DNA of 43,947 nt from sequence record NC_073315.1. One strand, given 5' to 3'. Below, piece by piece: positions 4,324 to 41,613 of the stretch (position 1 is its first letter; each line of letters begins with the position of its first letter). Origin of the DNA: Escherichia phage vB_EcoS_fFiEco03. A program made the position numbers and the translations under genes. The notes beneath the pieces are model-generated. The model searched no databases, was not told where the DNA came from, and saw only the letters and a list, made by a program, of their open reading frames with translations.

Positions 4324-4353
4324 AGGCCCCGTTAAGGGGCCTTAGTTTTATTT
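4324..4353. terminator. Bidirectional intrinsic terminator at convergent gene ends
   Basis: AGGCCCC-GTTAA-GGGGCCT stem-loop followed by TAGTTTTATTT; lies between the + gene ending 4319 and the - gene ending 4348. Confidence 0.6.
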
Positions 4354-4869
4354 AAATCGCGCTGGCATTAGCACCATAAATGCAGTGTTTGAAAACGATA
4401 TTTTGCATCCTCTGGTTTGGTCCTGGAAATCGAAACGAGCAATTTCATTTTTGTATGCCTTAGAAATCTTGTGCGCGTCTGCCAAGTAGGGCATGGTAAA
4501 TCCTATGCTATCAACTGCCCCCGGCGTGATGTGCGCCACACGTCGCCAGTCAGGAAATTTTCCGTCTACAACATCCACCGGAAGTGTACATATAAGCGCA
4601 CGACTATCGTCATAGAAAGATACACTGCCGTTGTCGTGGTCTACTTCCGCGTAGTTAAATTTAGAAGGCTCTCTCCCTTTTATGTCTATGAGAGCCCCAT
4701 TCTCAACGTTTGTCTTAACATTGTCGCAGAACAATCTATGGCCGTCCGTAGACACTATCAATCCTTCCGGGTCTATGTAAAAAGCGTTCAGATAGTAGCG
4801 TACATCATTTTTAGCCCTGCAGATTTTCGCCCCTACATACGCGGGAAAAGTAATTACTGTGGCAACCAT
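4348..4869 (-). CDS. Truncated DnaN-like (beta sliding clamp-like) protein, 173 aa
   Basis: Contains DVRYYLN...TDGHRL, DGKFPDWRRV and C-terminal MVLMPARFK, matching E. coli DnaN landmarks (DVRYYLNGMLF...TDGHRL, DGRFPDYRRV, VVMPMRL) recalled from memory; AGGAG RBS and own promoter. Confidence 0.6.
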   Translation of the reverse strand: MVATVITFPAYVGAKICRAKNDVRYYLNAFYIDPEGLIVSTDGHRLFCDNVKTNVENGALIDIKGREPSKFNYAEVDHDNGSVSFYDDSRALICTLPVDVVDGKFPDWRRVAHITPGAVDSIGFTMPYLADAHKISKAYKNEIARFDFQDQTRGCKISFSNTAFMVLMPARFK

Positions 4870-4896
4870 TTTACATCTCCTGTTTAAGTTATCCGA

Positions 4897-4925
4897 ATAG
4901 TACCCTATTATGTTGGTGTCTGCAA
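4897..4925 (-). promoter_or_regulatory. Sigma70-like promoter, class I (TTGCAG-N17-TACTAT), drives the DnaN-like gene
   Basis: Read on the - strand: -35 TTGCAG, 17-nt spacer containing ATAATAGGG, -10 TACTAT. Same architecture as the promoters at 14663, 37107 and 38586. Confidence 0.55.
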
Positions 4926-4991: not shown

Positions 4992-5020
4992 TTGACTTTT
5001 CACTAAAAATATGCTAAGCT
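4992..5020 (+). promoter_or_regulatory. Sigma70-like promoter, class III (TTGACT-N17-TAAGCT, extended -10 TG)
   Basis: -35 TTGACT, 17-nt spacer ending in TGC, -10 TAAGCT. Near-identical to the promoter at 36798..36826. Confidence 0.6.
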
Positions 5021-5026
5021 CCACCT

Positions 5027-5134
5027 GAGCTTGTGAAGTATGAACAAGCGACCGCGGCGCGGGCAGGTAACGGAGCGGGACGTAAGTCCTGAGTGTAGTT
5101 ACGCTGACGCGTTCGGTAGGGCCATACTCTATTG
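5027..5134 (+). ncRNA. Promoter-proximal conserved structured RNA element, copy A (candidate sRNA or cis-acting leader)
   Basis: Begins at the predicted +1 of the 4992 promoter; about 80 percent identical to 36832..36941; two hairpins conserved with compensatory changes; frame not conserved between copies; terminator follows at 5201..5228. Confidence 0.45.
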
Positions 5135-5200
5135 CTTGTGTAAAAAGTAACTGGTTTACTGAGATTACGCCGTTTCAGTGTTTAAATGATAAGGACTAGC

Positions 5201-10908: not shown

Positions 10909-12075
10909 ATGGCTACAACTCCTTTTAAGGGCGCGAATACCGCGCAATTCTATGTGGCGGAAACTACCCCGGGCGTGACACCGACTTCCCCGGTATGGTC
11001 GCCGTTGCGCAATACTGGCGGTGTTCCTGCGGTAACCCGCGACGCGCTGACCTCCAACGAACTCGACGGCAGCAGAGAAACCACATCCATCCGCACCGGT
11101 AACAAACAGGTTAGCGGGGAGTACGCCATCGAACTTAGCTCACGTAGCCAGGATGATTTCCTTGCGGGTGCTATGACTTCTACGTGGCAGGATGGGGTAG
11201 AGATTACGGGTGCTGAAATTACGGTCGCTCCAGCAGGTAAAACATTCACCCGCGCTGCCGGTAGCTTCATTACTGACGGTGTAGAAGTTGGCGACCTGAT
11301 TGCGTTCACCGACTTAACCGGCGACAACGCAAAACCGTTTATCGTGACTGAGGTTTCTGCTCTTGTAGTTACGGGTGCGGGTATCCAGCACACGCTGACA
11401 GCAGAGACTGTAACCACCGACGCTAAAACAGGCGATAAACTGGAAACCGGTAACGCATGTAAGACGTTCTCCATCCTGACATGGTTCAAAGGACAGTGCG
11501 GGAACCCTGACGCGTACATGCTGACCAAAGGCGTGGAAATCTCCGGTTTCACCATTGAACAGGCCGTAAACGCGATGGTGACAGGCAGCTTCCCGTTCAT
11601 CGGTCTGAGTCAGGAAATTCTTTCTGCACCGCCAGCAGGTTCTGATTTCTCTCAGGTGACGTTTACCGATGAGCCGTTCTCATCCGTAGATGTGTCTGTG
11701 TTCGACGGTTCTACGCCGTTGCGTTGCGATACTCTGACCATCACCAACGACAACGGTGCGTCCGCACAGTTCGAACTAGGCAACAGTAGCGTCGCGTTCG
11801 TGGAACGTGGTCGCGCGGCTAACACATTCTCCATCTCCGGCAAGCTGTACGACATGGCGATGATTCAGAAGTTTATCAACGAACAGCAGGTAGAGATTAA
11901 CTCTATTCTGGCGGGGGTAAACGGGGCTATGTCTTTCAGCCTGAAACGTGCCGAGTTGACCGCAGTTACGCCAGAAATATCTGGCCCAGAATCAATCACC
12001 CAGAGCATAGAGGGACAGTCCACCGGCAATCAGTACCAGTCATCTATCGTAATTCAGCGTATTAGTTACACATAA
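10909..12075 (+). CDS. Major tail protein
   Basis: ATG at 10909 with AAGAGG RBS; about 388 aa; followed by a strong terminator and, further on, the chaperone and tape measure genes. Confidence 0.65.
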   Translation: MATTPFKGANTAQFYVAETTPGVTPTSPVWSPLRNTGGVPAVTRDALTSNELDGSRETTSIRTGNKQVSGEYAIELSSRSQDDFLAGAMTSTWQDGVEITGAEITVAPAGKTFTRAAGSFITDGVEVGDLIAFTDLTGDNAKPFIVTEVSALVVTGAGIQHTLTAETVTTDAKTGDKLETGNACKTFSILTWFKGQCGNPDAYMLTKGVEISGFTIEQAVNAMVTGSFPFIGLSQEILSAPPAGSDFSQVTFTDEPFSSVDVSVFDGSTPLRCDTLTITNDNGASAQFELGNSSVAFVERGRAANTFSISGKLYDMAMIQKFINEQQVEINSILAGVNGAMSFSLKRAELTAVTPEISGPESITQSIEGQSTGNQYQSSIVIQRISYT

Positions 12076-12120
12076 CTTGTGGTATAAGAAGAGTAAAGGA
12101 TAGCTTTAGCGGGCGAAAAA

Positions 12121-12150
12121 GAGAGGGGTCGTGCCCTCTCTTTCCTTTAT
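12121..12150 (+). terminator. Intrinsic terminator after the major tail gene
   Basis: GAGAGGG-GTCGTG-CCCTCTC stem-loop followed by TTTCCTTTAT. Confidence 0.65.
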
Positions 12151-12182
12151 ACGGTAAATACACGAGCCTGACGAGGTGAATA

Positions 12183-12815
12183 ATGTTCTTGTATGAAGAA
12201 TTTGAAAAGATACCAGCATCAAAACGGGCGGTATCATGCCGTAAAACAATCTGCGGAGTCGGTGTCAACGATGCAGATTTCACCACCAGTATTTTCAACG
12301 GCAAAAAGTCTGTTAACCACCCGGTGTACGATATTTGGTGTGCGATGATATTCAGGTGCTACCATGGGTCCGTTAAGCATCCAACATACTCAGGAGTGGT
12401 AGTGTGTGAAGACTGGCTGTATTTCTCCAACTACTTTAAATGGTACAAAGATAACTACGTAGAGGGTTGGCATGTTGACAAAGATTTGCTTACGGATTCT
12501 AAAGAATACTCACCGGATACCTGTATATTTGTCCCAAGAGTTTTAAACAACTTTCTAACCGACAGCGCAGCGGCTAGAGGTGACCTACCGATAGGCCTTA
12601 CTTATAGGAAAACAAACGGCAAGATTCGATGCAGGGTTAATAATCCGCTAACCGGGGTGCGCGAAAACTTAGGCGATTTTACCGATTTGGATGAAGCCAT
12701 CAAGGCCAGAACGCTGCGGAAGTTAGAGATAGCCGGAGAACTTAAGCCACTTATGGATTCCATAGACGGGAGAATCTATCCGAGGGCCGTTTCTGTAATT
12801 AAGGCACAACGATAA
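12183..12815 (+). CDS. Putative homing endonuclease (HNH-like nuclease domain plus C-terminal AP2-like DNA-binding domain)
   Basis: N-terminal W..M..RC...HP.Y.G..VC.DW..F..F..W...EGWHVDKDLL...YSPDTC pattern; C-terminal GKIRCRVNNPLTGVRENLGDFTDLDEAIKA (AP2-like); free-standing between terminators. Confidence 0.55.
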   Translation: MFLYEEFEKIPASKRAVSCRKTICGVGVNDADFTTSIFNGKKSVNHPVYDIWCAMIFRCYHGSVKHPTYSGVVVCEDWLYFSNYFKWYKDNYVEGWHVDKDLLTDSKEYSPDTCIFVPRVLNNFLTDSAAARGDLPIGLTYRKTNGKIRCRVNNPLTGVRENLGDFTDLDEAIKARTLRKLEIAGELKPLMDSIDGRIYPRAVSVIKAQR

Positions 12816-12819
12816 AACT

Positions 12820-12845
12820 AAGGCCCCTTTCGGGGCCTTTTTCTT
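12820..12845. terminator. Bidirectional intrinsic terminator (28-nt sequence repeated at 24735..24762)
   Basis: AAGGCCCC-TTTC-GGGGCCTT with U-rich flanks on both strands; convergent junction. Confidence 0.7.
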
Positions 12846-13074
12846 ACTCATCAATATTGCTTCGGTACTCCCGTAACTTCTCCAGGCTTTCGATTGCCTC
12901 AGCTAAGTCTGTCCAGGTGTCCTTGTGACCACGTAAACCCATACACAATAGCTTCTTCAATGCGTGCTGTAACGCCGGGTCGCGTATGTCGAAGGCGCGT
13001 AGCACGTCGTAAACGTCTACAGTCATGGTGCTGCCGTGGGTGTTTGTCATTGTGCGGTTGTATTTATTTGTCAC
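12844..13074 (-). CDS. Hypothetical small protein (start ambiguous: 13074, 13050 or 13026)
   Basis: Last gene of the - strand island; no clear SD for any candidate start. Confidence 0.4.
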   Translation of the reverse strand: MTNKYNRTMTNTHGSTMTVDVYDVLRAFDIRDPALQHALKKLLCMGLRGHKDTWTDLAEAIESLEKLREYRSNIDE

Positions 13075-13264
13075 GGTTAACTCTCTTAAATCGGGCTATG
13101 CCTGACTCGTTAATGCTGCCTATTTCAAAGAAGCTGCGATATTTAGGCGAATACATTCTTACGTCGCCGTTCTCTAGGGTGACCCCTTCATATACAGCGC
13201 CTACTTCGAATCCATTTTTCTCCGCGTACGGACTCACATCGGTGCATTCATACATATCTTTCAT
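13064..13264 (-). CDS. Hypothetical protein, 66 aa
   Basis: ATG overlaps the stop of the upstream phosphoesterase gene (ATGA coupling). Confidence 0.5.
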   Translation of the reverse strand: MKDMYECTDVSPYAEKNGFEVGAVYEGVTLENGDVRMYSPKYRSFFEIGSINESGIARFKRVNRDK

Positions 13265-14391
13265 CCCAGCATCTCCGGTGAAATAGTTAAACGTGCGACC
13301 TCGCCATATTCGGCGCTATAAGTAATTACATTTGCACTACGGCCCGACATCCATCCGCCGCGCGAGGCGTAGGCGTCTTTAGCCGCTAAGGTGCGGTGTT
13401 GCTCAACAATCATGTTACGGCTTTCTACAATCTTCTGGTGGTGGAGGTGGCCTACGTGGGCGTAGCTGTAAACGCTTTCGCCAAATGCTTTGCGGAACTT
13501 GGCAATCATAACCGGTTCGATAGCGTCTAATCGCGCCTTATGCCCGTGGTGAAAGAACAGCGTAGTTTTGCCGTGTTTGACCATCTTGTAAACATCCGGC
13601 GACGTATCGACGAACACACGCGGCTCATTGTCGTACAGCGTACTAAACATCTCAGCTAACCAAATCATTCCGCTTTCGTCGTGGTTCCCTTGCACGATAA
13701 GCAAGCGAACAGATTTATGCTTAACCAGCGCCATGTCAACAACACGGCGTACCATACGAATCATGTAGCGGACCAGTTTCTGATAACGAGTGTCCGCATC
13801 AAGAACATGACCACTCGCTGGCGTAACCGCATCCAGACTATCGAAGTGCGCGAAGTCACCCAGCAGGTTAATAACCCCAGTTCCTGCATCTGGTGCTTTC
13901 TGAAACGCCGCATCGAACCATCGGGAGAACAGGTCTTCCGCAATCTTCATATCCCAGTCGTCGCCGCTCTCGTCAGCCCAGGCCAGCATACCAAGATGGA
14001 AATCAGATACCGTGTACAGATTGAGTAGTTTATCGTCGCGTTTGGCTCGAGTCGCTTTAACCGGCGCAACTGGCGTAATCTCCGACTTCATTCCTTCGAT
14101 CACGGCTTTCATTAACTCGACCTGACGTTCGGCGTCGGTGTCTGTCTTAACCCATTGCAACTTAGTGTTGCCGAACTCGTCCACCAGTGACGACGTTCCT
14201 TTAATTTTGTAGCCGTCCGGGACAAGATGGCTAACGTCACGACCGTGACCTACGCCTTTCTTCGCCAGCTTCGCTTTACGGATACGAATAACTCGGTCTG
14301 AGATGCCGTATTTACGGGATATGTCGATAATCTTTGTTCCGGCGTTCAATTCTTCCTGTAACTGTTCGTCGGTTATTTTCTTCCGGGCCAT
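13261..14391 (-). CDS. Calcineurin-like metallophosphoesterase with N-terminal HTH (SbcD/Mre11-like motifs)
   Basis: Motifs SDFHLG, GDFAHFD, GNHDES, FHHGH and GHLHH in canonical order; N-terminal HTH-like segment (ISRKYGISDRVIRIRKAKL); GAGGAAG RBS. Confidence 0.7.
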   Translation of the reverse strand: MARKKITDEQLQEELNAGTKIIDISRKYGISDRVIRIRKAKLAKKGVGHGRDVSHLVPDGYKIKGTSSLVDEFGNTKLQWVKTDTDAERQVELMKAVIEGMKSEITPVAPVKATRAKRDDKLLNLYTVSDFHLGMLAWADESGDDWDMKIAEDLFSRWFDAAFQKAPDAGTGVINLLGDFAHFDSLDAVTPASGHVLDADTRYQKLVRYMIRMVRRVVDMALVKHKSVRLLIVQGNHDESGMIWLAEMFSTLYDNEPRVFVDTSPDVYKMVKHGKTTLFFHHGHKARLDAIEPVMIAKFRKAFGESVYSYAHVGHLHHQKIVESRNMIVEQHRTLAAKDAYASRGGWMSGRSANVITYSAEYGEVARLTISPEMLG

Positions 14392-14429: not shown

Positions 14430-14621
14430 TCACTTCTCTTTGACATTCGAGTTGCAAGCCCAGATTAAAATAAATACCCACGGCAGCAGAACCCAGCCGA
14501 GAAACAGATTAGCCATGAATATCGCCAGTTTCGCTTTATGTCCGCGCATATGGGCCACTAAAAACGGGATAAAATAAACTAAAACGATAATGATTAAGAA
14601 GAACATAGTAATACCTGTCAT
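14430..14621 (-). CDS. Superinfection-immunity-like small membrane protein (2 TM)
   Basis: 63 aa from ATG 14621 with AGGAG RBS; motif YFIPFLVAHMRGHKAKLAIFMANLFLGWVLLPWVFILIWA resembles the Imm-type superinfection immunity family (recalled). Confidence 0.5.
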   Translation of the reverse strand: MTGITMFFLIIIVLVYFIPFLVAHMRGHKAKLAIFMANLFLGWVLLPWVFILIWACNSNVKEK

Positions 14622-14662
14622 GGTGTAGCTCCTGTTTGAGTTAACATTGTTGGTGTAAGTGA

Positions 14663-14691
14663 ATAGTATCCTATTATGTTGGGGTGCGCAA
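14663..14691 (-). promoter_or_regulatory. Sigma70-like promoter, class I (TTGCGC-N17-TACTAT), drives the reverse island
   Basis: On the - strand: TTGCGC, spacer ACCCCAACATAATAGGA, TACTAT. Near-identical to the + strand promoter at 37107..37135. Confidence 0.55.
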
Positions 14692-25084: not shown

Positions 25085-26505
25085 TTCTTACCTCGTCTCT
25101 TCATGTAATTAAGCAACTCTTCCTGGACCGATTTCTTCTCGTCTGTACGCGCGGCAACAACCTCATCCAGCGTGTCTTTAGCGACGATGTGGTACAGGAA
25201 CACCGGGCGCTCGTGGCCCGCCTGTTTCTGGCGGACTGGGCCTATGCGCTCAACAACCTGCAAATAGTGCTCAAGGTTCCAGCCTTGCGAGATGAACGCC
25301 AGATGATGACCCCCGTCCTGTAAATTCAAACCATGCCCGGCTGACGCAGGATGCACGCATAAAATCTCGATTTCCCCACGGTTCCACGCTTCCATCTGCT
25401 TGTTCCCCTTAGCGCCTTTGGCGAACGCCTGTGCCTGTGGGAATCGCTTAAGGATACGCTCCAGTTCGTGTTTAAACTGATAGGCTACCAGTAACGGTGC
25501 ACCCTGTAGCTCCTCAACAATGGACTCAAGCGCATCAAGTTTCGTGTCGTGCACTTTCTCCCAGTCTTTGGTTGCTTCTCCGTCCGGTCCCGATACATAC
25601 ACGGCACCAGATGCAATCTGCAAACACTTCGACGTCTTCGCCGCGGCGTTAGCAGCTTCAACTTCTCCGCTCTCCAGTTCCGCGAATAACTTCTCCTCCA
25701 TATCGATGTACGCCTGACGTGCTTTCTTCGGCAGGTCAATTTCAACCGGAACAATAATCGGCGCTTCACACCCGAACCACTCAGCGGCGTCAATCGTGAG
25801 ACTAATGTCCTTCATCTTCTGGTGAATCTCATTATCCGCCCCCGGGCGCGCATGATACTCTCGCGCCATCGCCGACTTACCTTTCTGGACAGAGTTAAAC
25901 CATCGGTCGGTGAATGCCGTGTATGAAGAACCGAGGCGCTCACCCGCGTCGATAAACCAGTTCTGGCCCCACAAGTCTTTTAGGCCGTTTGGTGACGGTG
26001 TGCCTGTAAGGTTAATGAAACGCTTAACCTTTCCGAACGCCACTTTGCTAAGCGCCTTTGCCCGCTTGCTACCACCTGAACGGCTGCGGAATGATTTTAG
26101 TTTCGTGCTTTCATCGGCGACAATAACCGTAAAAGGCCAGTCGTCTTTGCCGTAGTAGTCAATCAGCCACTCGATAACTTCGTAGTTGGTGCATACCACG
26201 TTAGCGTCCGACTCCAGCGCCGCGATGCGGCGCCTCTCGCTACCGGTCGCATCGACGACACTCAGACAAGGGAAACCCCACTTAGTTTGTTCTGCGGGCC
26301 ACGTACCGGATGCAACACGTAACGGGGCGAGGATTAACACGCGGTCCTCTTCCGTAAGCTGCCCGTTGCGGAACAGGCGGTTTAGAACCCACATTGTCGA
26401 CGAGGTCTTGCCGCCGCCCATACCGCACCAGATATTGCAACGTGGGTGCTGTAGCATAAACGACGTCATTATTTTCTGATATTCCCTGCGCCTAAACTTA
26501 CTCAT
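25081..26505 (-). CDS. Superfamily 2 (SNF2/DEAD-like) helicase
   Basis: Walker A GMGGGKTS, DExx-like VADESTK, and a helicase C-terminal-like region; 474 aa. Confidence 0.75.
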   Translation of the reverse strand: MSKFRRREYQKIMTSFMLQHPRCNIWCGMGGGKTSSTMWVLNRLFRNGQLTEEDRVLILAPLRVASGTWPAEQTKWGFPCLSVVDATGSERRRIAALESDANVVCTNYEVIEWLIDYYGKDDWPFTVIVADESTKLKSFRSRSGGSKRAKALSKVAFGKVKRFINLTGTPSPNGLKDLWGQNWFIDAGERLGSSYTAFTDRWFNSVQKGKSAMAREYHARPGADNEIHQKMKDISLTIDAAEWFGCEAPIIVPVEIDLPKKARQAYIDMEEKLFAELESGEVEAANAAAKTSKCLQIASGAVYVSGPDGEATKDWEKVHDTKLDALESIVEELQGAPLLVAYQFKHELERILKRFPQAQAFAKGAKGNKQMEAWNRGEIEILCVHPASAGHGLNLQDGGHHLAFISQGWNLEHYLQVVERIGPVRQKQAGHERPVFLYHIVAKDTLDEVVAARTDEKKSVQEELLNYMKRRGKK

Positions 26506-26999
26506 GCCTTGAACTCCCCGAAGTATATTTCCGCGGCTCTTTGGTATACGCGCGACGCTTCTTCTATAGTATCAAAATAGCCAAGGTGGATGTATTTGTT
26601 ATTGACGCCTATTCTGGCGCGCCACCTGCCAGAGGGTATTTGGTAAACCCCTATCGCGCCGCTAGTGTTATGTGATGAGCAGTCTCGGTTCTGAATCTGC
26701 TGGCTCCTGGTTGCTGGCCTTATATTATTTATGGCGTTATTAGCCCTGTTACGGTCTTTATGGTCAAGCTCACCATTATGATATTCTCCGTAGACGAAAG
26801 CCCATGCCAGATGGTGGGCTTTTATTCTTACACCGGAGACTGTAATAACTATGTATCCTTTGTCGTTTGGCCCTCCGGCTACCTCCCCCGCATTTCTCCC
26901 TTTTATGCTTACTTTTCGTGTAAATATACCGGTTTCGGGGTCATAGTTAAGAAGACGTTTCGCCTCCTCAATATCAGGCCTTCTTGTTAATTTGTTCAT
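26502..26999 (-). CDS. HNH homing endonuclease with C-terminal AP2 domain
   Basis: HNH_3-like GYIVITVSGVRIKAHHLAWAFVYGEYHNGELDHKDRNRANNAINNIR followed by AP2-like GAIGVYQIPSGRWRARIGVNNKYIHLGYFDTIEEASRVY; AT-richer than flanks. Confidence 0.8.
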   Translation of the reverse strand: MNKLTRRPDIEEAKRLLNYDPETGIFTRKVSIKGRNAGEVAGGPNDKGYIVITVSGVRIKAHHLAWAFVYGEYHNGELDHKDRNRANNAINNIRPATRSQQIQNRDCSSHNTSGAIGVYQIPSGRWRARIGVNNKYIHLGYFDTIEEASRVYQRAAEIYFGEFKA

Positions 27000-27217: not shown

Positions 27218-27502
27218 CTAACTATAATAGTTCGCTATTAGGTCGTCAACCTGTTTGAACGACCCGACGACAAAAACATTCGCGCCGCGTTTGCGCATAC
27301 GCTCATGCTCACGTAACTGGTGTGGGTCTGGCTTCGTGTTTTCGTCTTTCTTAACCTCGACGAACCAGACGATACCGTTGGGGAGAATTACCAGCAGGTC
27401 GGGGGCGCCGGAACGCCCCTCGTAGGAAAGTTTACGAACGAGGCCGCCGATAGCCTCGAATCGCTCTTTTGCGTATTTCTGGATGCGCCCCTCTTTAGTC
27501 AT
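27218..27502 (-). CDS. VRR-NUC domain nuclease (putative)
   Basis: 94 aa from ATG 27502 (ATGA-coupled); pattern G.PDLLVILPNGIVWFVEVKK...Q consistent with a VRR-NUC PD-(D/E)xK core (recalled). Confidence 0.55.
   Translation of the reverse strand: MTKEGRIQKYAKERFEAIGGLVRKLSYEGRSGAPDLLVILPNGIVWFVEVKKDENTKPDPHQLREHERMRKRGANVFVVGSFKQVDDLIANYYS
27221..27249 (-). promoter_or_regulatory. Sigma70-like promoter, class II (TTGACG-N17-TATAGT), embedded in the 3' end of the VRR-NUC gene
   Basis: On the - strand: TTGACG, spacer ACCTAATAGCGAACTAT, TATAGT. Same design as the promoters at 30954 and 33569. Confidence 0.55.
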
Positions 27503-30953: not shown

Positions 30954-30982
30954 ACTATAATAGCTAACTATTCAGGTGTCAA
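30954..30982 (-). promoter_or_regulatory. Sigma70-like promoter, class II (TTGACA-N17-TATAGT)
   Basis: On the - strand: TTGACA, spacer CCTGAATAGTTAGCTAT, TATAGT; upstream of the SSB-like gene. Confidence 0.6.
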
Positions 30983-32872: not shown

Positions 32873-33361
32873 TTATTCTTCTTCGAAATACTTGTTCTTG
32901 ATTGCCGTCAGGCGTTCCAGATACTCCGCCAGGTCTTCGTCTTTAATCGCGGCAATCTTCATCTTCTTACCGGTGAACTCTTCCAGCAGTTCATCGGAAT
33001 CATCGCACGCGGCTTCGCTCGGGCCTTCATTAATTGCATCGTCGATGGCCTGAATCTGGTCACGCAGAGACTTGTAATCGACTTCTTCTTTCTCTTCTTC
33101 CGGTTCTGGCGTAGGCTCCTCTACTTTAGGTTTACGCGGCTTGCGCTTCGGCTTCTCTTCTTCTGCTGGTTTAGTGTCAACGGTGTCTTCACCTTCTACC
33201 GGGATTTCTTTCGTTACTTCTTTCGCAACAACATCACGAACACTATCTGCGATGTTTGCATCTGCCTTAAGTTCATACACAGGTTGTTTCACGCTGTTCG
33301 CTGCAATCAGTTCATGCGCAACTACGAAACGTTCCAGTAATTTTAAGAATTGGTCTAACAT
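32873..33361 (-). CDS. Hypothetical acidic protein, 162 aa
   Basis: AGGAG RBS; Glu/Lys/Pro-rich low-complexity central region. Confidence 0.5.
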   Translation of the reverse strand: MLDQFLKLLERFVVAHELIAANSVKQPVYELKADANIADSVRDVVAKEVTKEIPVEGEDTVDTKPAEEEKPKRKPRKPKVEEPTPEPEEEKEEVDYKSLRDQIQAIDDAINEGPSEAACDDSDELLEEFTGKKMKIAAIKDEDLAEYLERLTAIKNKYFEEE

Positions 33362-33376
33362 TATTTGTTCTCCTGT

Positions 33377-33538
33377 TTATTTTGACTCTTGAATCATTGC
33401 TTGCCAGATAAAACAAACGGCGTCTGACAGTTGCTCTTCATCGACTTCATCCTCGAGGCCTGGTATTACGTCGAGCAGTTGGTCTATACCCGCTTTTAGC
33501 ATCTCTTCTGTCGGTATTACGTCTACGCTGAACTTCAT
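33377..33538 (-). CDS. Micro-ORF: 53-aa acidic protein
   Basis: Hand-translated MKFSVDVIPTEEMLKAGIDQLLDVIPGLEDEVDEEQLSDAVCFIWQAMIQESK; GGAGAG RBS; first gene after the 33569 promoter. Confidence 0.4.
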   Translation of the reverse strand: MKFSVDVIPTEEMLKAGIDQLLDVIPGLEDEVDEEQLSDAVCFIWQAMIQESK

Positions 33539-33568
33539 TTTATCTCTCCTCTCGTTTGGTATGGGCTA

Positions 33569-33597
33569 ACTATAATAGCGAACTATTCACATGTCAA
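33569..33597 (-). promoter_or_regulatory. Sigma70-like promoter, class II (TTGACA-N17-TATAGT), divergent from the Cro-like gene
   Basis: On the - strand: TTGACA, spacer TGTGAATAGTTCGCTAT, TATAGT. Confidence 0.6.
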
Positions 33598-33621
33598 TGG
33601 GCTTTTCTAAAATAATTAATA

Positions 33622-33630
33622 TGGTACTAT
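33622..33630 (+). promoter_or_regulatory. Extended -10 promoter (TGgTACTAT) for the Cro-like gene
   Basis: TG-N-TACTAT with a poor -35; overlaps the second ACTATTCACAT(A/G)TCAA repeat. Confidence 0.45.
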
Positions 33631-33661
33631 TCACATATCAACTGACTAAGGAGTAATTGAC

Positions 33662-33877
33662 ATGCAACCATCTGAACTAGGTATCCGTGTAGAGCAACGC
33701 CGCAAAGAACTCGGCATCTCCCAGCGCCGTCTGGCTGTCCTGGCGGGCGTTTCCCAGGGCGCGATTAACCAGCTGGCACTTGGGGCAACTCAGGACGTCC
33801 GCCCGGCGACGCTGTTTAAACTGGCGGAAGTGCTGCAAGTAGACGCTAAGTGGCTGGCGTTCGGTGAAGGGGCTTAA
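33662..33877 (+). CDS. XRE-family HTH transcriptional regulator (Cro/CI-type)
   Basis: 71 aa; HTH ISQRRLAVLAGVSQGAINQLALG; AAGGAG RBS; monocistronic between its promoter and a terminator. Confidence 0.8.
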   Translation: MQPSELGIRVEQRRKELGISQRRLAVLAGVSQGAINQLALGATQDVRPATLFKLAEVLQVDAKWLAFGEGA

Positions 33878-33893
33878 CGCCCCTTTCTTTTTA
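33867..33893 (+). terminator. Intrinsic terminator after the Cro-like gene
   Basis: GGGGC-TTAAC-GCCCC followed by TTTCTTTTT; the stop codon lies in the loop. Confidence 0.65.
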
Positions 33894-33894
33894 C

Positions 33895-36162
33895 CTATTC
33901 CAAATCTTCCTCCGTCACCACCAGCATCTCATTAGGTTCGTATATTGTCTTCGGAATCTTGTTATCCGTTATCCTGGTGTTCAGCCTGTAACGGCCGGGT
34001 ATTATCTGATTGTTTTCGTCAGTACCCGGAACAAGATACCCGGCCTCAACCATTTTCTTAATCTTCCCGCGTTCTATGGCTTCTTTGGAGTTAAACGCCT
34101 TCGCGTTGGGGTCGGACTGCGCTAGCTTATTTGCCGCTGCTACCGTGATGCCCTCGTTGCCGTTGTAGGTTCCTTCTGCCAGTTCGAACGCGGCCAGTAT
34201 CGTGGCTTCCGAACTGTTGACGGCGCTCTCTACGGTTTTACGTACATTTTCTTTACCTTCCTTTGTCAGCCCTTCTTCCCGCTCTTTCTCCTCGTCAGTT
34301 TTGAACGGCTCGAAACCCCACGGCATTAACACAAGCGCTTTGTGCGGCTCCGGCAGGTCCAGGTTTACGATTGTGCCGTATTCCTCTGTGTTACCCAGGA
34401 ACTCAACCGCACGGTATTCTTTCGGCGGCGGCGCTTCACGGAACTGTACAGACTCCAGCACCATACCAACCGTCTTCTGTTGAGGTCCGTGCTTAAATTT
34501 AGAGTGGTATACATTTATCTGACGGTCGGTTGCGCGTTCAATTGTCAGTTCCACATCGACGCCTGCGTACAGCGCGCCACTGCCACGGGCTTTCTTTCCA
34601 CCCTTCGGGGTATGGTGGACGACGCCTACCGCGGCTTTAGTTGTGTCGCGTACTTCTTTCATGATTGCGATAACTTTACCCATACCGATTGCCGTTGATG
34701 AACTGTTCTCGTCGAACTTATCGATCGTCAGGGCCAGCGTCTGGTTGAGGGTGTCAAACGCAACCATGCCAATAGGTTCATCCCCCGCAGTTTCACGCAT
34801 CAACTTAATCAGGTTTTTCAGTTTGCCGACTTCACCCATGTCGATGACATGTACATAATCTTTACCTTCTTCGCCGTATTTAGCCGCGAGTGCATCGATA
34901 CGTGTACGTGTAGCCGCACCACCTTCACCATCAATATAGAAGTGATGGCAACGCTGGGTATCCGCCCCGGCAAACCGGTATCTGGAGGCACTCAGGTACA
35001 TCATACCCAGTGTATAGAACGATTTATACGTGCCGGATTCCCCGACAATATCCCAGATGCAATCCGACGGCATGTACCCTTCAACGACGAAATCAGCCTT
35101 TACCGGTTCCGGTAGCTCATCCTCTTCTGAGTCCTCGTCGTCTTCCAGGTCGTCCAGGCTGCATGAAACTGATTCACGCGCACCCCAACCGATGGCCTCT
35201 GCGACTTCACTAAATGGCAGCCCGGTCGCGTCGCACGCATACTTCCACACCTCTTTTGGCGACATGCCTTCGGTTGCCGTAATGTCGGTGTCGTGAATCA
35301 TGGTTACGTTCGGCGCTTCGTACCCTTCACGCGGGAAGCACAGCAGGAAGTCATCCGGACGCGGCGTCGGGTCGCTGTAGTTTTCTGCGTGTTCTGGCGT
35401 AGCTGGCATTTTCAGGCCGCGCGGTGTCATGATACCGCCGTACTCGAATGCCAGTGCTTCAAACGCATCAGTAAACGCGGTGCGCAGTTCTTCCGGTATC
35501 TGGTAATCCGATGCGCTGCTCACCTCATAATCCGGGATGCCTTCCAGCAGACGGTCAGGGTCAATAAGGTCATTGCGGCGTGACCAGACGACCTCTGAGT
35601 TAACCGGCGGCAGGTACATAGGCTGGGACAGAGTGAACCCGCTGTGGTCGGCGCCCATGCCTTTGAAGAAGTGCTCCAGCAATCCATGACGGACGCGGAT
35701 GATGTCACCACCTTCAACCGGACGAGCCAGCGGCATGACGACACGAAAGCGCGGCGACTCATCAATATGTGACGCCGTGGTATAGAGGCACATGGCTTTA
35801 CGGCTGCGCTTAACCCGGCGCACCGCTTCCTGGTACTCTTCCGGCGTTGCGCTGTCGAAGTCCAGATACGCCAGCGACGATTTGCTTACAGACGCGTCAC
35901 AGCGATAAAAGAAGCCTTTACGGGCCTGCTTAAAGTCACCTGTTTCCGGGTCTTTTACGGTGCTGTGTATAGAATCGCACGCGGCAGTGATATAACCTGG
36001 CGCGGTCTTAGGGTTAATCCCGTCACGAACAGCATCAAGCGGCTGAATTAACTCTTTCAGGTCATCCAGTGTTGCCGTATGTGTGGTTCTGACGTTTATA
36101 TCCTTTTTCTCCGCCCGCGCGTTGCGACGAGACCACGAGTAGGATAAAATTACATCGGACAT
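33895..36162 (-). CDS. Primase-helicase (N-terminal primase-like region plus C-terminal RecA-like ATPase)
   Basis: 755 aa; Walker A GESGTYKS in the C-terminal half; AAGGA RBS. Confidence 0.7.
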   Translation of the reverse strand: MSDVILSYSWSRRNARAEKKDINVRTTHTATLDDLKELIQPLDAVRDGINPKTAPGYITAACDSIHSTVKDPETGDFKQARKGFFYRCDASVSKSSLAYLDFDSATPEEYQEAVRRVKRSRKAMCLYTTASHIDESPRFRVVMPLARPVEGGDIIRVRHGLLEHFFKGMGADHSGFTLSQPMYLPPVNSEVVWSRRNDLIDPDRLLEGIPDYEVSSASDYQIPEELRTAFTDAFEALAFEYGGIMTPRGLKMPATPEHAENYSDPTPRPDDFLLCFPREGYEAPNVTMIHDTDITATEGMSPKEVWKYACDATGLPFSEVAEAIGWGARESVSCSLDDLEDDEDSEEDELPEPVKADFVVEGYMPSDCIWDIVGESGTYKSFYTLGMMYLSASRYRFAGADTQRCHHFYIDGEGGAATRTRIDALAAKYGEEGKDYVHVIDMGEVGKLKNLIKLMRETAGDEPIGMVAFDTLNQTLALTIDKFDENSSSTAIGMGKVIAIMKEVRDTTKAAVGVVHHTPKGGKKARGSGALYAGVDVELTIERATDRQINVYHSKFKHGPQQKTVGMVLESVQFREAPPPKEYRAVEFLGNTEEYGTIVNLDLPEPHKALVLMPWGFEPFKTDEEKEREEGLTKEGKENVRKTVESAVNSSEATILAAFELAEGTYNGNEGITVAAANKLAQSDPNAKAFNSKEAIERGKIKKMVEAGYLVPGTDENNQIIPGRYRLNTRITDNKIPKTIYEPNEMLVVTEEDLE

Positions 36163-36220
36163 GTTGTATTTCCTTCAGCAAGTAATTTAGCCTCGGCGTT
36201 CACCGCGTCGGGGCTTTCTT

Positions 36221-36511
36221 TTATCTTTTAGCCAGACATTCCATCAAATGCTCGTACTTACGGTAATAATCTACGACAATCTCATCACCGAAATACTGAT
36301 ACACGTACGCTAAGTGGTCAGAGACATCGATGGAAGCCGACATTGTGCTGAGGCTTCTTAGACTAATCAACTGCAATTCTTCTGTAACGCAAAACGGCGA
36401 ATATGAGTCCAGTTTACAGGAAACGTTAAAACACAACGCGTATTCACCTTGCACTAAATAAACCATATAAGCATTGTCGTTCTCTTTATCGTGGAAAATT
36501 ACACCTTTCAT
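36221..36511 (-). CDS. Hypothetical protein, 96 aa
   Basis: ATGA-coupled to the upstream HTH gene; AT-rich. Confidence 0.45.
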   Translation of the reverse strand: MKGVIFHDKENDNAYMVYLVQGEYALCFNVSCKLDSYSPFCVTEELQLISLRSLSTMSASIDVSDHLAYVYQYFGDEIVVDYYRKYEHLMECLAKR

Positions 36512-36690
36512 TTCACGTTCTCCTTAATCCACGCTTCAACTTTATTGCGGTCGAATGTCCCTGGTAAACGGCGGCCCATAACCTTAATACAGCAATCCGG
36601 GAATTTGCCACTGCGCAACCAGTTATTAATTGTCTGACGTGTCACCCCGATACGTTCAGCTACTTCATTCTGGGTCATGTAATGCTGCAT
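36508..36690 (-). CDS. AlpA/Xis-like HTH DNA-binding protein
   Basis: Start at ATG 36690 with AGGAG RBS; MTQNEVAERIGVTRQTINNWLRSGKFP resembles the AlpA/excisionase HTH family. Confidence 0.55.
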   Translation of the reverse strand: MQHYMTQNEVAERIGVTRQTINNWLRSGKFPDCCIKVMGRRLPGTFDRNKVEAWIKENVK

Positions 36691-36721
36691 TTTTATATCT
36701 CCTGTTTGTTTAGTGGAACCG

Positions 36722-36750
36722 AGTATAGGATAGCGGGAATGTAAAAGCAA
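36722..36750 (-). promoter_or_regulatory. Sigma70-like promoter (TTGCTT-N17-TATACT) for the AlpA-like/primase operon
   Basis: On the - strand: TTGCTT, 17-nt spacer, TATACT; divergent from the 36798 promoter. Confidence 0.5.
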
Positions 36751-36797
36751 CCAAAACTGAACACAAAGTTACTAAGATGCAAAAGATGCTACTGGTA

Positions 36798-36826
36798 TTG
36801 ACTTTTACTTAAAAATATGCTAAGCT
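36798..36826 (+). promoter_or_regulatory. Sigma70-like promoter, class III (TTGACT-N17-TAAGCT, extended -10 TG)
   Basis: Near-identical to 4992..5020 (spacer differs at 2 positions). Confidence 0.6.
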
Positions 36827-36831
36827 TCACT

Positions 36832-36941
36832 GAGCTTGTGAGATATCGCAAGCGACCGCGGAGCGGCAGGGAACGCAACGCGTGCCATTAGGCACTTGAG
36901 TGTAGTTCCGCTGGCGCTTTCGGAAGGGCCAAAGTCTATTG
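36832..36941 (+). ncRNA. Promoter-proximal conserved structured RNA element, copy B
   Basis: Starts at predicted +1; alignable to 5027..5134 with one indel; hairpins GCTTGTG/CGCAAGC and GTGCC-ATTA-GGCAC correspond to GCTTGT/ACAAGC and GGAC-GTAA-GTCC in copy A. Confidence 0.45.
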
Positions 36942-37106
36942 TTAATCCCGCCTAAATACCCAAGTCACTGATAATTAAAAGTTTATATAGTTGCCGTAAG
37001 CAAGGTAGAGAGTACTTCACTCCGCTGGGGTGGGCTAACGCCCACCCACTGCGTTGCGTACTCTTTTAAGAAACGAAAGAATCACAACGGCAACGTAACT
37101 ATTCTC

Positions 37107-37135
37107 TTGCACACCCCAATATAATAGGATACTAT
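37107..37135 (+). promoter_or_regulatory. Sigma70-like promoter, class I (TTGCAC-N17-TACTAT)
   Basis: TTGCAC, spacer ACCCCAATATAATAGGA, TACTAT; followed by a conserved AACGAGA..GGAG leader. Confidence 0.6.
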
Positions 37136-37168
37136 TCACTTATCTAAACGAGACAGAGGAGTAGGGTT

Positions 37169-37360
37169 ATGTATAAGAAGGGGCAGTTGGCGACGACGAA
37201 ACGCGGTGGGCAGTACGTAATAGTGTTGCAGGACGAGAACGAGTATGACGAGGATAATATAGTCGAAGTATGGGGCCTGGTAAGAAAGAAACCCGGGTTC
37301 GCCTTACGCGATAATCTGGAATTAATTGGCAACAATTTTAAATTCAAAGGGGTGAAGTGA
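37169..37360 (+). CDS. Hypothetical early protein, 63 aa
   Basis: ORF with GAGGAG RBS downstream of the 37107 promoter. Confidence 0.5.
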   Translation: MYKKGQLATTKRGGQYVIVLQDENEYDEDNIVEVWGLVRKKPGFALRDNLELIGNNFKFKGVK

Positions 37361-37563
37361 TGGAAGAATTATTTGAAGAACTGAAACACCATAGATTAAT
37401 AGAAGTTAATTTCACAATTAAACGATACGCGATTGTCACACTTGATGATGAAGAAATTTCAACATCATCACCGGAGATGCTGGTTAAACTCCTGCGCTCC
37501 TTACGAACGGCATCGAATCATGATGCCCGTGCCGACGACTCTGAGGGAGGTTGCCGTGAATGA
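37357..37563 (+). CDS. Hypothetical protein, 68 aa
   Basis: Start/stop-overlapping ORF. Confidence 0.45.
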   Translation: MMEELFEELKHHRLIEVNFTIKRYAIVTLDDEEISTSSPEMLVKLLRSLRTASNHDARADDSEGGCRE

Positions 37564-37835
37564 ATAACACTGAGCTGAAAACAGTAGCGGAATATAACCA
37601 TAAAATACGGGTCATGCGTCGGGGTGCCGGGCTGGAGCAGTTTTATAACATGTGGCGCACTGCGACGCGCGACCCCGAGTTTCTTAGTACCGGGTATTAT
37701 TTCAATAAAGGCATTATCCCGATTCGTGCCCGCAAGGATTACGGTTGGGTGCGCGAGACACCTAATCTTATGTGGTGCTGGTATTGTGGTGAGTTCTGGG
37801 TGCACGTTAAAGAGAAGATGGTGAGTTATGAATAA
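37560..37835 (+). CDS. Hypothetical protein, 91 aa
   Basis: ATGA-coupled ORF. Confidence 0.45.
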   Translation: MNNTELKTVAEYNHKIRVMRRGAGLEQFYNMWRTATRDPEFLSTGYYFNKGIIPIRARKDYGWVRETPNLMWCWYCGEFWVHVKEKMVSYE

Positions 37836-37895
37836 TTACCCGTTTATTTTAATCGTCAGCGCCGTTTATGAGGCGCACGCGTTGTGGGGGCTGGT

Positions 37896-38087
37896 ATGAG
37901 AATTCGAATAACAAAGGTAAACAGTTTTCAACCCGCACCCTATGACGACCATCCGCTCTACCATTTCGGCGTGGCTGTCGGTGATGTGTTCGAGGTTGTG
38001 GAAGCGCATGGGTACGGGTTTATAGTCGAAACTGATGATGGACCGCTATTCATTAGACGCAGTGAGTGCGAAGTTCTGGAGGACTAA
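37896..38087 (+). CDS. Hypothetical protein, 63 aa
   Basis: ATG 37896 preferred over the GTG at 37884. Confidence 0.45.
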   Translation: MRIRITKVNSFQPAPYDDHPLYHFGVAVGDVFEVVEAHGYGFIVETDDGPLFIRRSECEVLED

Positions 38088-38090
38088 TTT

Positions 38091-38234
38091 ATGAGAGAAG
38101 CATTTGAACGGTGGGCCGTCGTCGAGGGTCTGCCGGTTAACAAGGGTTCAAAGAAAGAGTACCTGAACGTTAAGACGCGTCTCGCGTGGCGGGCGTGGAA
38201 AGCTGGTGTGTTGTCTGTTGCGAATCCGAGGTGA
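38091..38234 (+). CDS. Micro-ORF: 47-aa protein
   Basis: ATG with GGAGGA RBS; MREAFERWAVVEGLPVNKGSKKEYLNVKTRLAWRAWKAGVLSVANPR. Confidence 0.4.
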   Translation: MREAFERWAVVEGLPVNKGSKKEYLNVKTRLAWRAWKAGVLSVANPR

Positions 38235-38585: not shown

Positions 38586-38614
38586 TTGCACACTGGGATA
38601 GAATAGGCTACTAT
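38586..38614 (+). promoter_or_regulatory. Sigma70-like promoter, class I (TTGCAC-N17-TACTAT)
   Basis: TTGCAC, spacer ACTGGGATAGAATAGGC, TACTAT; conserved AACGAGAGGAG leader. Confidence 0.6.
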
Positions 38615-38635
38615 TCATTTACACAAACGAGAGGA

Positions 38636-41563: not shown

Positions 41564-41584
41564 TCTATTTTCTGCAATGACTAG

Positions 41585-41613
41585 TTGACTATTAACATCG
41601 ACCCTATTATATT
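41585..41613 (+). promoter_or_regulatory. Sigma70-like promoter (TTGACT-N17-TATATT)
   Basis: TTGACT, spacer ATTAACATCGACCCTAT, TATATT; conserved AACGAGAGGAG leader. Confidence 0.55.

Follow-up and report, generated by a model that had tools for sequence, protein, structure and literature searches.

A 434 Cro-like protein and a dispersed promoter palindrome as a candidate genome-wide repressor system in the virulent phage vB_EcoS_fFiEco03

What a Cro-like regulator gene does in a phage that has neither an integrase nor a CI repressor is the question raised by one locus of Escherichia phage vB_EcoS_fFiEco03 (NC_073315.1). The window, meaning the whole stretch of 43,947 nucleotides that was analysed, is a near-complete Kagunavirus genome (Guernseyvirinae, small siphophages). 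At 33662..33877 on the plus strand it carries a gene for a 71-residue protein of the XRE/HTH_3 type of helix-turn-helix (HTH) regulators, set against divergent promoters. A preliminary description of this DNA took the promoters and a repeated 16-nt motif lying on them for a local genetic switch. The present analysis points to a wider role. With a probability of about 0.6, judged from sequence, the protein is a 434 Cro-like repressor that acts throughout the genome on two promoter classes, termed class I and class II below, and weakly on its own gene.

The protein belongs to a well-defined family. It scores 48.1 bits against Pfam HTH_3 (PF01381) over residues 11-65, with a cut-off of 23, and it also matches PHROG transcriptional-regulator families. 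A phmmer sequence search of the Protein Data Bank returns 434 Cro as the best match, over the full length (E 1.9e-6). A single-sequence AlphaFold2 model (predicted local distance difference test 83) has five helices, at residues 5-16, 21-28, 32-39, 48-58 and 62-66, and its top Foldseek match is 2cro, with 40% identity and template-modelling scores of 0.73/0.79. As modelled, the protein has the five-helix DNA-binding fold of 434 Cro and 434 repressor, with helices 2 and 3 forming the HTH. The recognition helix reads VSQGAINQ.

The gene is equipped to be transcribed on its own. A Shine-Dalgarno sequence read from the DNA, AAGGAG (33649..33654, +), is conserved in relatives, and an extended -10 promoter, TGgTACTAT (33622..33630, +), with TACTAT at 33625-33630, is homologous to the class I -10. 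Conservation here and below was scored on 36 distinct intergenic sequences from IMG/VR relatives; in these, TG and TACTAT are invariant, and the n of TGn is G, A or C. The regulator's own promoter reads as a class I derivative that has lost its -35 and gained TGn. A weaker candidate for a second upstream promoter, TTCACA-16-TAAAAT (33586..33613, +), reaches 10/12 in a consensus scan and is not conserved, as the last 2 nt of its -35 fall within a hypervariable stretch. An intrinsic terminator (33866..33895, +), a hairpin at 33866-33886 followed by a T-run on the plus strand only, closes the unit, and the stop codon of the gene lies inside the loop of the hairpin. Both neighbouring genes are on the minus strand, making the gene monocistronic and antiparallel. 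The open reading frame (ORF) map and the scans thus agree with the preliminary description, which had placed a monocistronic regulator with its own extended -10 and terminator on the opposite strand, between leftward replication operons.

Facing away from the regulator is a leftward class II sigma-70 promoter, TTGACA-17-TATAGT (33569..33597, -), which matches the consensus at 11/12 positions and is predicted to drive a 53-residue ORF and the downstream replication genes. The 123-bp intergenic region holds two candidate operators. O-left, AATAG CGAA CTATT (33574..33587), is an exact palindrome within the spacer of the leftward promoter, at about -25 to -12, and starts 88 nt upstream of the regulator's ATG. 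O-auto, AATAT GGTA CTATT (33618..33631), has one mismatch, starts 44 nt upstream of the ATG and straddles the -10 of the regulator promoter. The mismatch is an inner G-to-T change in the left arm (AATAT), and this same change creates the TGn of the extended -10. Back-to-back divergent promoters with an operator-like element on each, as first described, are therefore present. The sequence AATAGCGAACTATT is candidate operator DNA for a dimer of the 71-residue protein.

The palindrome AATAG-N4-CTATT (14 bp) is a property of the genome and not only of this locus. The genome contains seven exact and four one-mismatch copies where about 1.23 would be expected in total, and no other 5+5 or 6+6 palindrome is as frequent. 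All seven exact copies (4896, 14662, 27226, 30959, 33574, 37123 and 38602) lie in promoter cores. A genome-wide repeat search assigns the 16-mers to two families of long paralogous promoter units. The leftward class II promoters, TTGACA-NN-TGAATAGTTnGCTAT-TATAGT at 33597 and 30982 with a variant at 27249, each head a block of replication genes; the 30-nt unit of the 33569..33597 promoter recurs at 30954-30982 and 27221-27249. The class I promoters, TTGCAC-17-TACTATTCA, run rightward at 37107 and 38586 and leftward at ~14692 and 4925. The palindrome is the only sequence that the two classes have in common, in either orientation. Control by the regulator had been described as local. An operator-like element does sit on both local promoters, but exact copies in six further promoters, over ~34 kb, take the putative regulon well beyond them.

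Beyond O-left, the exact class II sites are at 30959..30972, in the promoter 30982..30954 (-) upstream of genes for a DUF2815 single-stranded-DNA-binding protein and DNA polymerase, and at 27226..27239, in the promoter 27249..27221 (-) upstream of a 63-residue ORF and of HNH endonuclease and SNF2 helicase genes. The class I sites each cover a -10. Two are rightward: 37123..37136, in TTGCAC-17-TACTAT (+) upstream of the first rightward small gene (37169), and 38602..38615, in the second rightward promoter. Two are leftward: 14662..14675, upstream of a superinfection-immunity-like gene (14430..14621) and a metallophosphatase gene, and 4896..4909, upstream of the ORF at 4348..4869. A one-mismatch site, ACTAG TTGA CTATT (41580..41593), covers the -35 of a rightward promoter, TTGACT-17-TATATT (41585). 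Its equivalent in Salmonella phage SETP3, AATAG TTGA CTAGT, carries one mismatch in the other arm. A further one-mismatch palindrome, at 2776-2789, stands with a minus-strand TACTAT after a terminator, between the portal and head-morphogenesis genes, without a minus-strand gene behind it. At the equivalent position SETP3 carries an amidase gene on the minus strand together with an annotated promoter, and the window site may be the relic of the promoter of a lost accessory gene (moron).

Conservation distinguishes the palindrome from the promoters that contain it. The intergenic region is near-invariant among the relatives except for the four central bases of the palindrome and the linker between CTATTCA and TGTCAA. 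Over three sites, variable columns number 2/30 in the arms and 9/12 in the centre (Fisher p = 2e-5), and the 36 Kagunavirus loci combine fixed arms with >25 different centres. Apart from the palindrome, the class II spacer is unconstrained and accommodates a 1-nt indel. Class I promoters have the palindrome at roughly -19 to -6 and class II promoters at roughly -25 to -12, a 6-bp difference in register which implies that the palindrome is no polymerase contact element in its own right. Arms that do not change, a centre that does and independence of promoter register together make up the signature of a dimeric HTH operator. The arms extend to the genus Jerseyvirus, where SETP3 has TAATAG-N4-CTATTA at orthologous promoters. 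Cornellvirus phages, which keep the XRE gene and lack a second HTH gene of the HTH_17 family considered below, have related dyads at orthologous promoters, either ATTAS-N4-STAWT or TATTA-N6-TAATA.

The evidence that ties this dyad to this type of protein comes from temperate phages. Protein similarity was the sole criterion for retrieving homologues from beyond the subfamily, and a signature group was defined by the recognition helix (S/T)QGxIxQ together with A(A/T)TAG-N4-CTA(A/T)T. Every one of the 26 IMG/VR loci encoding a CI-like repressor with the helix V(S/T)QG(L/T)I(G/S)Q has an exact A(A/T)TAG-N4-CTA(A/T)T 30-86 nt upstream of its own gene (26/26). These loci represent about 12 lineages and lie in DNA of 50-63% GC. 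Usually a further site with one mismatch lies 24 bp from the first, and 0.6-2.4 kb downstream there is a pair of exact sites, an arrangement like OR and OL with a pair spacing of 24-25 bp. Equally similar homologues with other helices (VKQGTISQ, ISQPTLSE, MAQGSLSE), which differ for example by K for S/T or by P or A for G, have no such sites, and all of the distant homologues lack them. Two controls that are 37-41% identical to the window protein, the repressor of Burkholderia phage Magia and the CI of an Stx1 phage, have other helices and other dyads. The window protein fits the signature with V-S-Q-G-A-I-N-Q, and its dyad lies within ~100 nt upstream of its own gene, as in the group. Two wider searches were less specific: a scan of a genome collection was dominated by an unrelated Rhodobacteraceae regulator family, and an IMG/VR search with the exact class II promoter pattern mostly recovered the same phage group, plus singleton contigs judged no commoner than chance.

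The regulator gene is also part of the fixed equipment of these phages. Compared with phage records, the interval 33000-34500 gives 299 matches, all to Kagunavirus or Jerseyvirus, the best at 90-95% identity. Essentially every record of the two genera contains the XRE gene, under labels that vary from 'transcriptional regulator cro', 'repressor' and 'HTH domain-containing protein' to 'hypothetical', or with no annotation. Neither Pfam domains nor a mapping of ORFs to the annotated SETP3 genes revealed an integrase or CI among the window ORFs, and those left unmatched lack such domains too. Kagunavirus papers likewise report neither gene (PMC9825357, PMC12919940), in line with what the preliminary description had said of the phage, and published isolates are all described as strictly lytic (PMC9825357, PMC12919940). 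Among 5,426 complete E. coli genomes of RefSeq, 0 integrated or resident copies of this region were found. Near-universal in Kagunavirus and Jerseyvirus and unaccompanied by an integrase, a CI or resident copies, the XRE gene is therefore a core gene of a virulent lineage. This is what would be expected of a gene of the lytic programme, and it is counted in favour of repression during lytic growth.

In the mechanism proposed, the 71-residue protein would bind the 14-bp AATAG-N4-CTATT operators as a dimer and occlude RNA polymerase throughout the genome, at the class II promoters of replication genes and at the class I promoters of early or accessory genes. Each site overlaps a region contacted by RNA polymerase, and binding should therefore repress. 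Accumulating protein would turn down early and replication transcription genome-wide, with a weaker action at the regulator's own promoter and at the 41585 promoter. The regulator's promoter would be shut last because its operator is the weakest. Binding, dimerisation, repression and timing are what we infer from the fold, the palindromes and the helix-operator association. Since there is no CI, no integrase and no third operator, the system is best read as a Cro-style governor; it is not a bistable switch.

Several observations weigh against this reading. The XRE helix of Jerseyvirus differs (SQSLITH) and yet the operator arms are the same, so that helix and operator do not covary perfectly within the subfamily. 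Cornellvirus has a helix (TQSAISH) nearer to that of Jerseyvirus, yet its dyads differ. The phyletic pattern of the exact palindrome, present in Kagunavirus and Jerseyvirus and absent from Cornellvirus, is that of the HTH_17 gene. Outside the subfamily, the signature-bearing genome loci L188, L190 and L191 have no exact sites, and neither do partial signature matches in actinobacteria, Clostridia and one Gemmataceae genome. The local sites are 44 bp apart, compared with 24-25 bp in the temperate phages, and cooperativity is not to be assumed. In the only Kagunavirus transcriptome, RNA sequencing (RNA-seq) of vB_Eco_K1B4, the XRE gene (004) is classed as 'middle' and the HTH_17 gene (008) as 'early' (PMC12645636), although the early/middle division is coarse.

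The 16-nt motif itself deserves separate treatment, as the preliminary description had built its switch on it. The motif ACTATTCACAT(G/A)TCAA is present in exactly two copies whose starts are 44 bp apart, close to the 45 bp first given, and at <=3 mismatches the window contains 5 matches against 0.52 expected from shuffles, none of which reached 5. The copies lie where they had been placed. Copy 1, ACTATTCACATGTCAA (33582-33597, +), covers the -35 and spacer of the leftward promoter and consists of the right operator arm, a free linker and the -35 (TGTCAA, which is TTGACA on the minus strand). Copy 2, ACTATTCACATATCAA (33626-33641, +), overlaps the regulator's TACTAT and joins the right operator arm and -10 to an initial transcribed sequence of class I type (TATCAA). 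The 16-mer is thus a composite whose left half, ACTATTCA, is the right arm (ACTATT) of AATAG-N4-CTATT plus CA. Between ACTATTCA (CTATTCA) and TGTCAA lie 2-3 nt that take 11 forms in the relatives, a 1-nt indel among them, making copy 1 either 16 or 17 nt long. With a hypervariable centre and an indel, the 16-mer was rejected as an operator unit, and in relatives it is not conserved as a whole. The 14-bp near-palindrome ATTCACATGTCAAT within copy 1 was rejected for its 14/15-bp polymorphism. A 26-bp dyad around the regulator's -10, TTAATATG-N10-CATATCAA, was likewise set aside: among four genera-level regions it is found in that of Kagunavirus only, and it is mostly explained by class I homology. 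The linker at 33590-33591, like that at 30975-30976 and their equivalents in relatives, contains the most variable positions of otherwise near-invariant intergenic regions, and class II spacers vary between 17 and 18 nt. This variability could reflect neutral drift at the only unconstrained positions or tuning of promoter strength.

A local switch, in which the two direct repeats ACTATTCACAT(G/A)TCAA would be the regulator's specific operator between its gene and the replication operon, is accordingly very improbable. It draws on the two exact copies, one on each divergent promoter, and on the near-palindrome in copy 1, but no spot in the region varies more than the centre of copy 1, and the length polymorphism there breaks any site of fixed spacing. 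Moreover, the Jerseyvirus intergenic region retains just the CTATT part, and both halves of the 16-mer are accounted for by other elements. The preliminary description had itself named an outcome that would tell against it, namely that the motif is common to all class I promoters. Such sharing was found, although the shared part resembles an operator and not a mere discriminator. A second alternative is that the palindrome is only inherited promoter sequence, spread by promoter duplication or arising from AT-rich, -10-like hexamers on both strands, while the XRE protein acts elsewhere or is vestigial. We regard it as unlikely to a marked degree. All copies do fall in two clearly paralogous promoter families sharing 30-50 nt, the right arm overlaps the class I -10 hexamer TACTAT, and authors working on phage fBC-Eco01 read the motif simply as a promoter consensus (PMC9825357). 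Descent alone, though, leaves unexplained why the arms stay invariant while the centre and neighbouring spacer positions drift in the same alignments. It also fits poorly with a left arm that has no polymerase-contact role, with the 6-bp change of register relative to the -35 and -10 between the classes, and with the occurrence of the same dyad type as an operator-like element beside CI genes of unrelated phages.

If the palindrome is a real operator, the question becomes which protein binds it and to what end. The chief competitor for binding is the 60-residue HTH_17 protein (excisionase/MerR-like; Pfam and PHROGs), encoded by the first gene of the primase operon (36508..36690, -); the XRE protein would then have a different target. 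This was the assignment favoured initially, for its phyletic pattern. HTH_17 is 80-100% conserved across the two genera that share the exact palindrome (441 phage records; 80% identity in SETP3), whereas the Kagunavirus and Jerseyvirus XRE proteins are ~51% identical and differ at four recognition-helix positions; both HTH_17 and the exact palindrome are absent from Cornellvirus. The vB_Eco_K1B4 RNA-seq study also lists HTH_17 among its four 'early' genes (PMC12645636). The assignment was downgraded to a minor possibility on two counts: Cornellvirus has related dyads at orthologous promoters without any HTH_17 gene, and the association of helix and operator in the 26 temperate-phage loci points to the XRE type. 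The HTH_17 gene's own putative promoter showed no perfect palindrome. Small winged-helix proteins of the MerR-like or Xis-like kind, such as BldC, usually bind direct repeats as monomers or filaments and not 14-bp dyads. The XRE protein is preferred as the binder because 434 Cro is its closest relative of known structure, because of the Cornellvirus dyads and, decisively, because of the helix-operator association. As for a host protein in this role, we know of no E. coli or Salmonella transcription factor with an AATAG-N4-CTATT site.

A last alternative keeps the XRE protein on the same operators and changes its purpose, from timing of the lytic programme to an immunity-type silencer acting in superinfection exclusion or in a reversible carrier (pseudolysogenic) state. 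The operators cover nearly all strong promoters recognised here, including the replication promoters and, weakly, that at 41585; the closest relatives that share the operator are true immunity repressors; and an operator-bearing class I promoter drives a superinfection-immunity gene. There is also a complete circular Kagunavirus genome of 44,086 bp in PLSDB (CP088689.1) that is registered as 'plasmid pC16EC0033-2' and comes from an E. coli isolate from the bloodstream. The record is compatible with repressor-based dormancy, as an anecdote only, and may reflect either a carrier state or phage carry-over in culture. Against this role, the 71-residue protein has no C-terminal oligomerisation or cleavage domain, resident copies are lacking in the E. 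coli genomes, and published isolates are described as strictly lytic (PMC9825357, PMC12919940). That the regulator is a silencer of this kind is rather improbable. Equally doubtful is the broader idea it would entail, that an integrase-less, 'lytic' subfamily keeps an immunity-type repressor domain able to silence the whole genome, giving a carrier state or superinfection immunity and so dormancy without lysogeny.

Around the regulator, gene order adds some detail. To its left lie the 53-residue ORF (33377..33538, -), the first gene of the leftward-promoter operon and a mosaic position among relatives, and then the remaining replication module, all on the minus strand. To its right, the primase-helicase gene (33895..36162, -) is convergent with it. 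A terminator scan found no minus-strand terminator, and transcription of the primase operon therefore probably continues, antisense, across the regulator gene. The primase-helicase gene of Cornellvirus has the opposite orientation to that of Kagunavirus and Jerseyvirus and stands downstream of the XRE gene on the same strand (FSL SP-031 11098-13749; Shemara 35330-38169), where the XRE gene may head the primase operon. Being co-directional there, the two genes show that an antisense interplay is not a conserved feature.

Elsewhere in the window, two genes under operator-bearing promoters are of note in themselves. The gene at 14430-14621 (-), directly behind a class I promoter, encodes a 63-residue superinfection-immunity protein (Pfam Imm_superinfect), and that at 26502-26999 (-), in the operon of the class II promoter at 27249, is HNH-AP2 homing-endonuclease-like. 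The window contains other repeats as well. A TTGACT-17-TAAGCT promoter with ~120 nt that follow it is present twice on the plus strand, at 4992-5140 and 36798-36945, at a distance of ~32 kb. Identity between the copies is 87-88% where they are best conserved and 78% over a longer alignment including flanks. The copies share the same long hairpin, with compensatory changes in the apical stem (GUGCC/GGCAC versus GGGAC/GUCCU) and folding z-scores of -3.35 and -1.85. They are candidates for a pair of phage-encoded small RNAs or structured leaders; an Rfam search of the window returned no match, for this pair or for any other part. The 10-mer CAACGGCAAC or its complement occurs 8 times (9885, 15748, 21052, 22454, 27097, 31299, 34156 and 37085). 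Its 9-mer core occurs 12 times, in genes and intergenic DNA, one copy lying just upstream of the 37107 class I promoter. A related 9-mer, ACGGCAACA, occurs 11 times in Cornellvirus phage Shemara.

The motif had been noticed before under another name. The PHIRE consensus of fBC-Eco01, 'tgAATAGTa-ccTATTat-T', has seven copies and was interpreted as promoters of a phage-encoded RNA polymerase (PMC9825357). That consensus is the palindrome AATAG-N4-CTATT described here. The full records of SETP3, FSL SP-031 and Shemara, genomes onto which the window ORFs map, have no annotated RNA polymerase gene, and every copy of the motif lies inside a sigma-70-type -35/-10 pair. The earlier assignment is probably an artefact of the conventional PHIRE reading. 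A literature search found no paper on the regulator. Previously on record, then, were the gene as 'Cro/repressor' and the motif as 'phage promoters'; what is new is the link between gene and motif, the redefined operator and the helix-operator rule.

Isolation of Kagunavirus and Jerseyvirus phages for therapy and biocontrol is widespread, and one of them, CM001, has been called an attractive synthetic-biology model (BASEL preprint, 10.1101/2024.09.12.612763). The link between gene and motif yields a regulon that can be tested cheaply, with one 71-residue protein, one 14-bp site and 8-11 promoters. It would explain why a virulent lineage has a 'repressor' among its core genes, a point of relevance to safety assessments in which repressor genes are flagged, and it would supply defined repressible promoters for engineering. 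The pairing of (S/T)QGxIxQ with A(A/T)TAG-N4-CTA(A/T)T further predicts operators for uncharacterised prophage repressors. The general understanding of phage regulation is unchanged by these findings.

Repressors of the Cro/CI type whose dyads overlap promoters are a familiar kind of system, and the dyads here are scattered as they are in P1 or phiC31. The operators of 434 Cro are 14-bp dyads overlapping promoters, and by binding them the protein lowers early transcription. The window protein shares with it a length of 71 residues and the five-helix fold (2cro, 3cro; ~40% identity), and the first glutamine of the recognition helix is conserved (Q28 in 434, Q32 here). The helices otherwise diverge, SQGAINQ in the window against KQQSIQL in 434 Cro, as do the half-sites, AATAG against ACAA. 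Unlike 434, the window phage has no CI partner and no tripartite OR/OL layout, and its operators are dispersed over ~34 kb of a virulent genome.

The PRM/PR-OR region of lambda offers a superficially similar geometry. The start sites of PRM and PR are 82 bp apart, and the predicted starts of the back-to-back promoters here are ~75 bp apart. In both, operators overlap both promoters and the regulator gene forms one of the divergent transcription units. The window locus has two sites 44 bp apart, each inside a single promoter core, where lambda has three, and it has no second regulator. No evidence of cooperativity or bistability was found at the window locus. Having no CI, no integrase and no set of three adjacent operators, the locus falls outside the lambdoid CI/Cro switches.

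The controller (C) proteins of restriction-modification systems are small XRE dimers; they bind dyads that overlap the promoter of their own gene and so serve as a timing device that depends on concentration. C.AhdI and C.BclI are similar to the window protein in size and fold and appear among its Foldseek matches. The neighbours of the window gene are the primase-helicase gene and small genes of the replication module, not restriction-modification genes, and the operator sequence is different, which sets it apart from this class; the window locus gives no evidence of an activating site as in C-protein systems.

The uncharacterised CI-like repressors of temperate phages and prophages resemble the window protein in recognition. 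They share with the window protein the helix signature and the operator type beside their own gene, and their HTH domains are 39-44% identical to it. One of them, the 'repressor protein C' of Burkholderia phage vB_BmuP_KL4, has ATTAGCATCCTAAT as its candidate site. These repressors lie mostly in GC-rich DNA, with hosts that include Burkholderia, Corticimicrobacter and Candidatus Glomeribacter, and the literature search found no experimental study of them. Where the full length was checked, they are mostly 150-230 residues long with a C-terminal extension, compared with 71 residues here, and the longest show full-length resemblance to cI of Pseudomonas phage D3. Within a cI/cro immunity module, their sites form OR-like pairs with a spacing of 24-25 bp, accompanied by a distal pair, unlike the arrangement in the window.

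In the layout of its operators, the window phage resembles the dispersed-operator repressors, namely C1 of P1, gp71 of mycobacteriophage L5 with its 'stoperators' and the phiC31 repressor with its conserved inverted repeats. Each of these pairs one small repressor with many near-identical sites, mostly over early-gene promoters, as is proposed here. The seven exact palindromes are dispersed, near-identical and promoter-overlapping in the manner of P1 C1 operators, a resemblance of function only. P1, L5 and phiC31 are temperate phages that use their repressors to maintain lysogeny, and the sites of P1 and L5 are asymmetric, whereas those of the window are palindromic and belong to a virulent phage.

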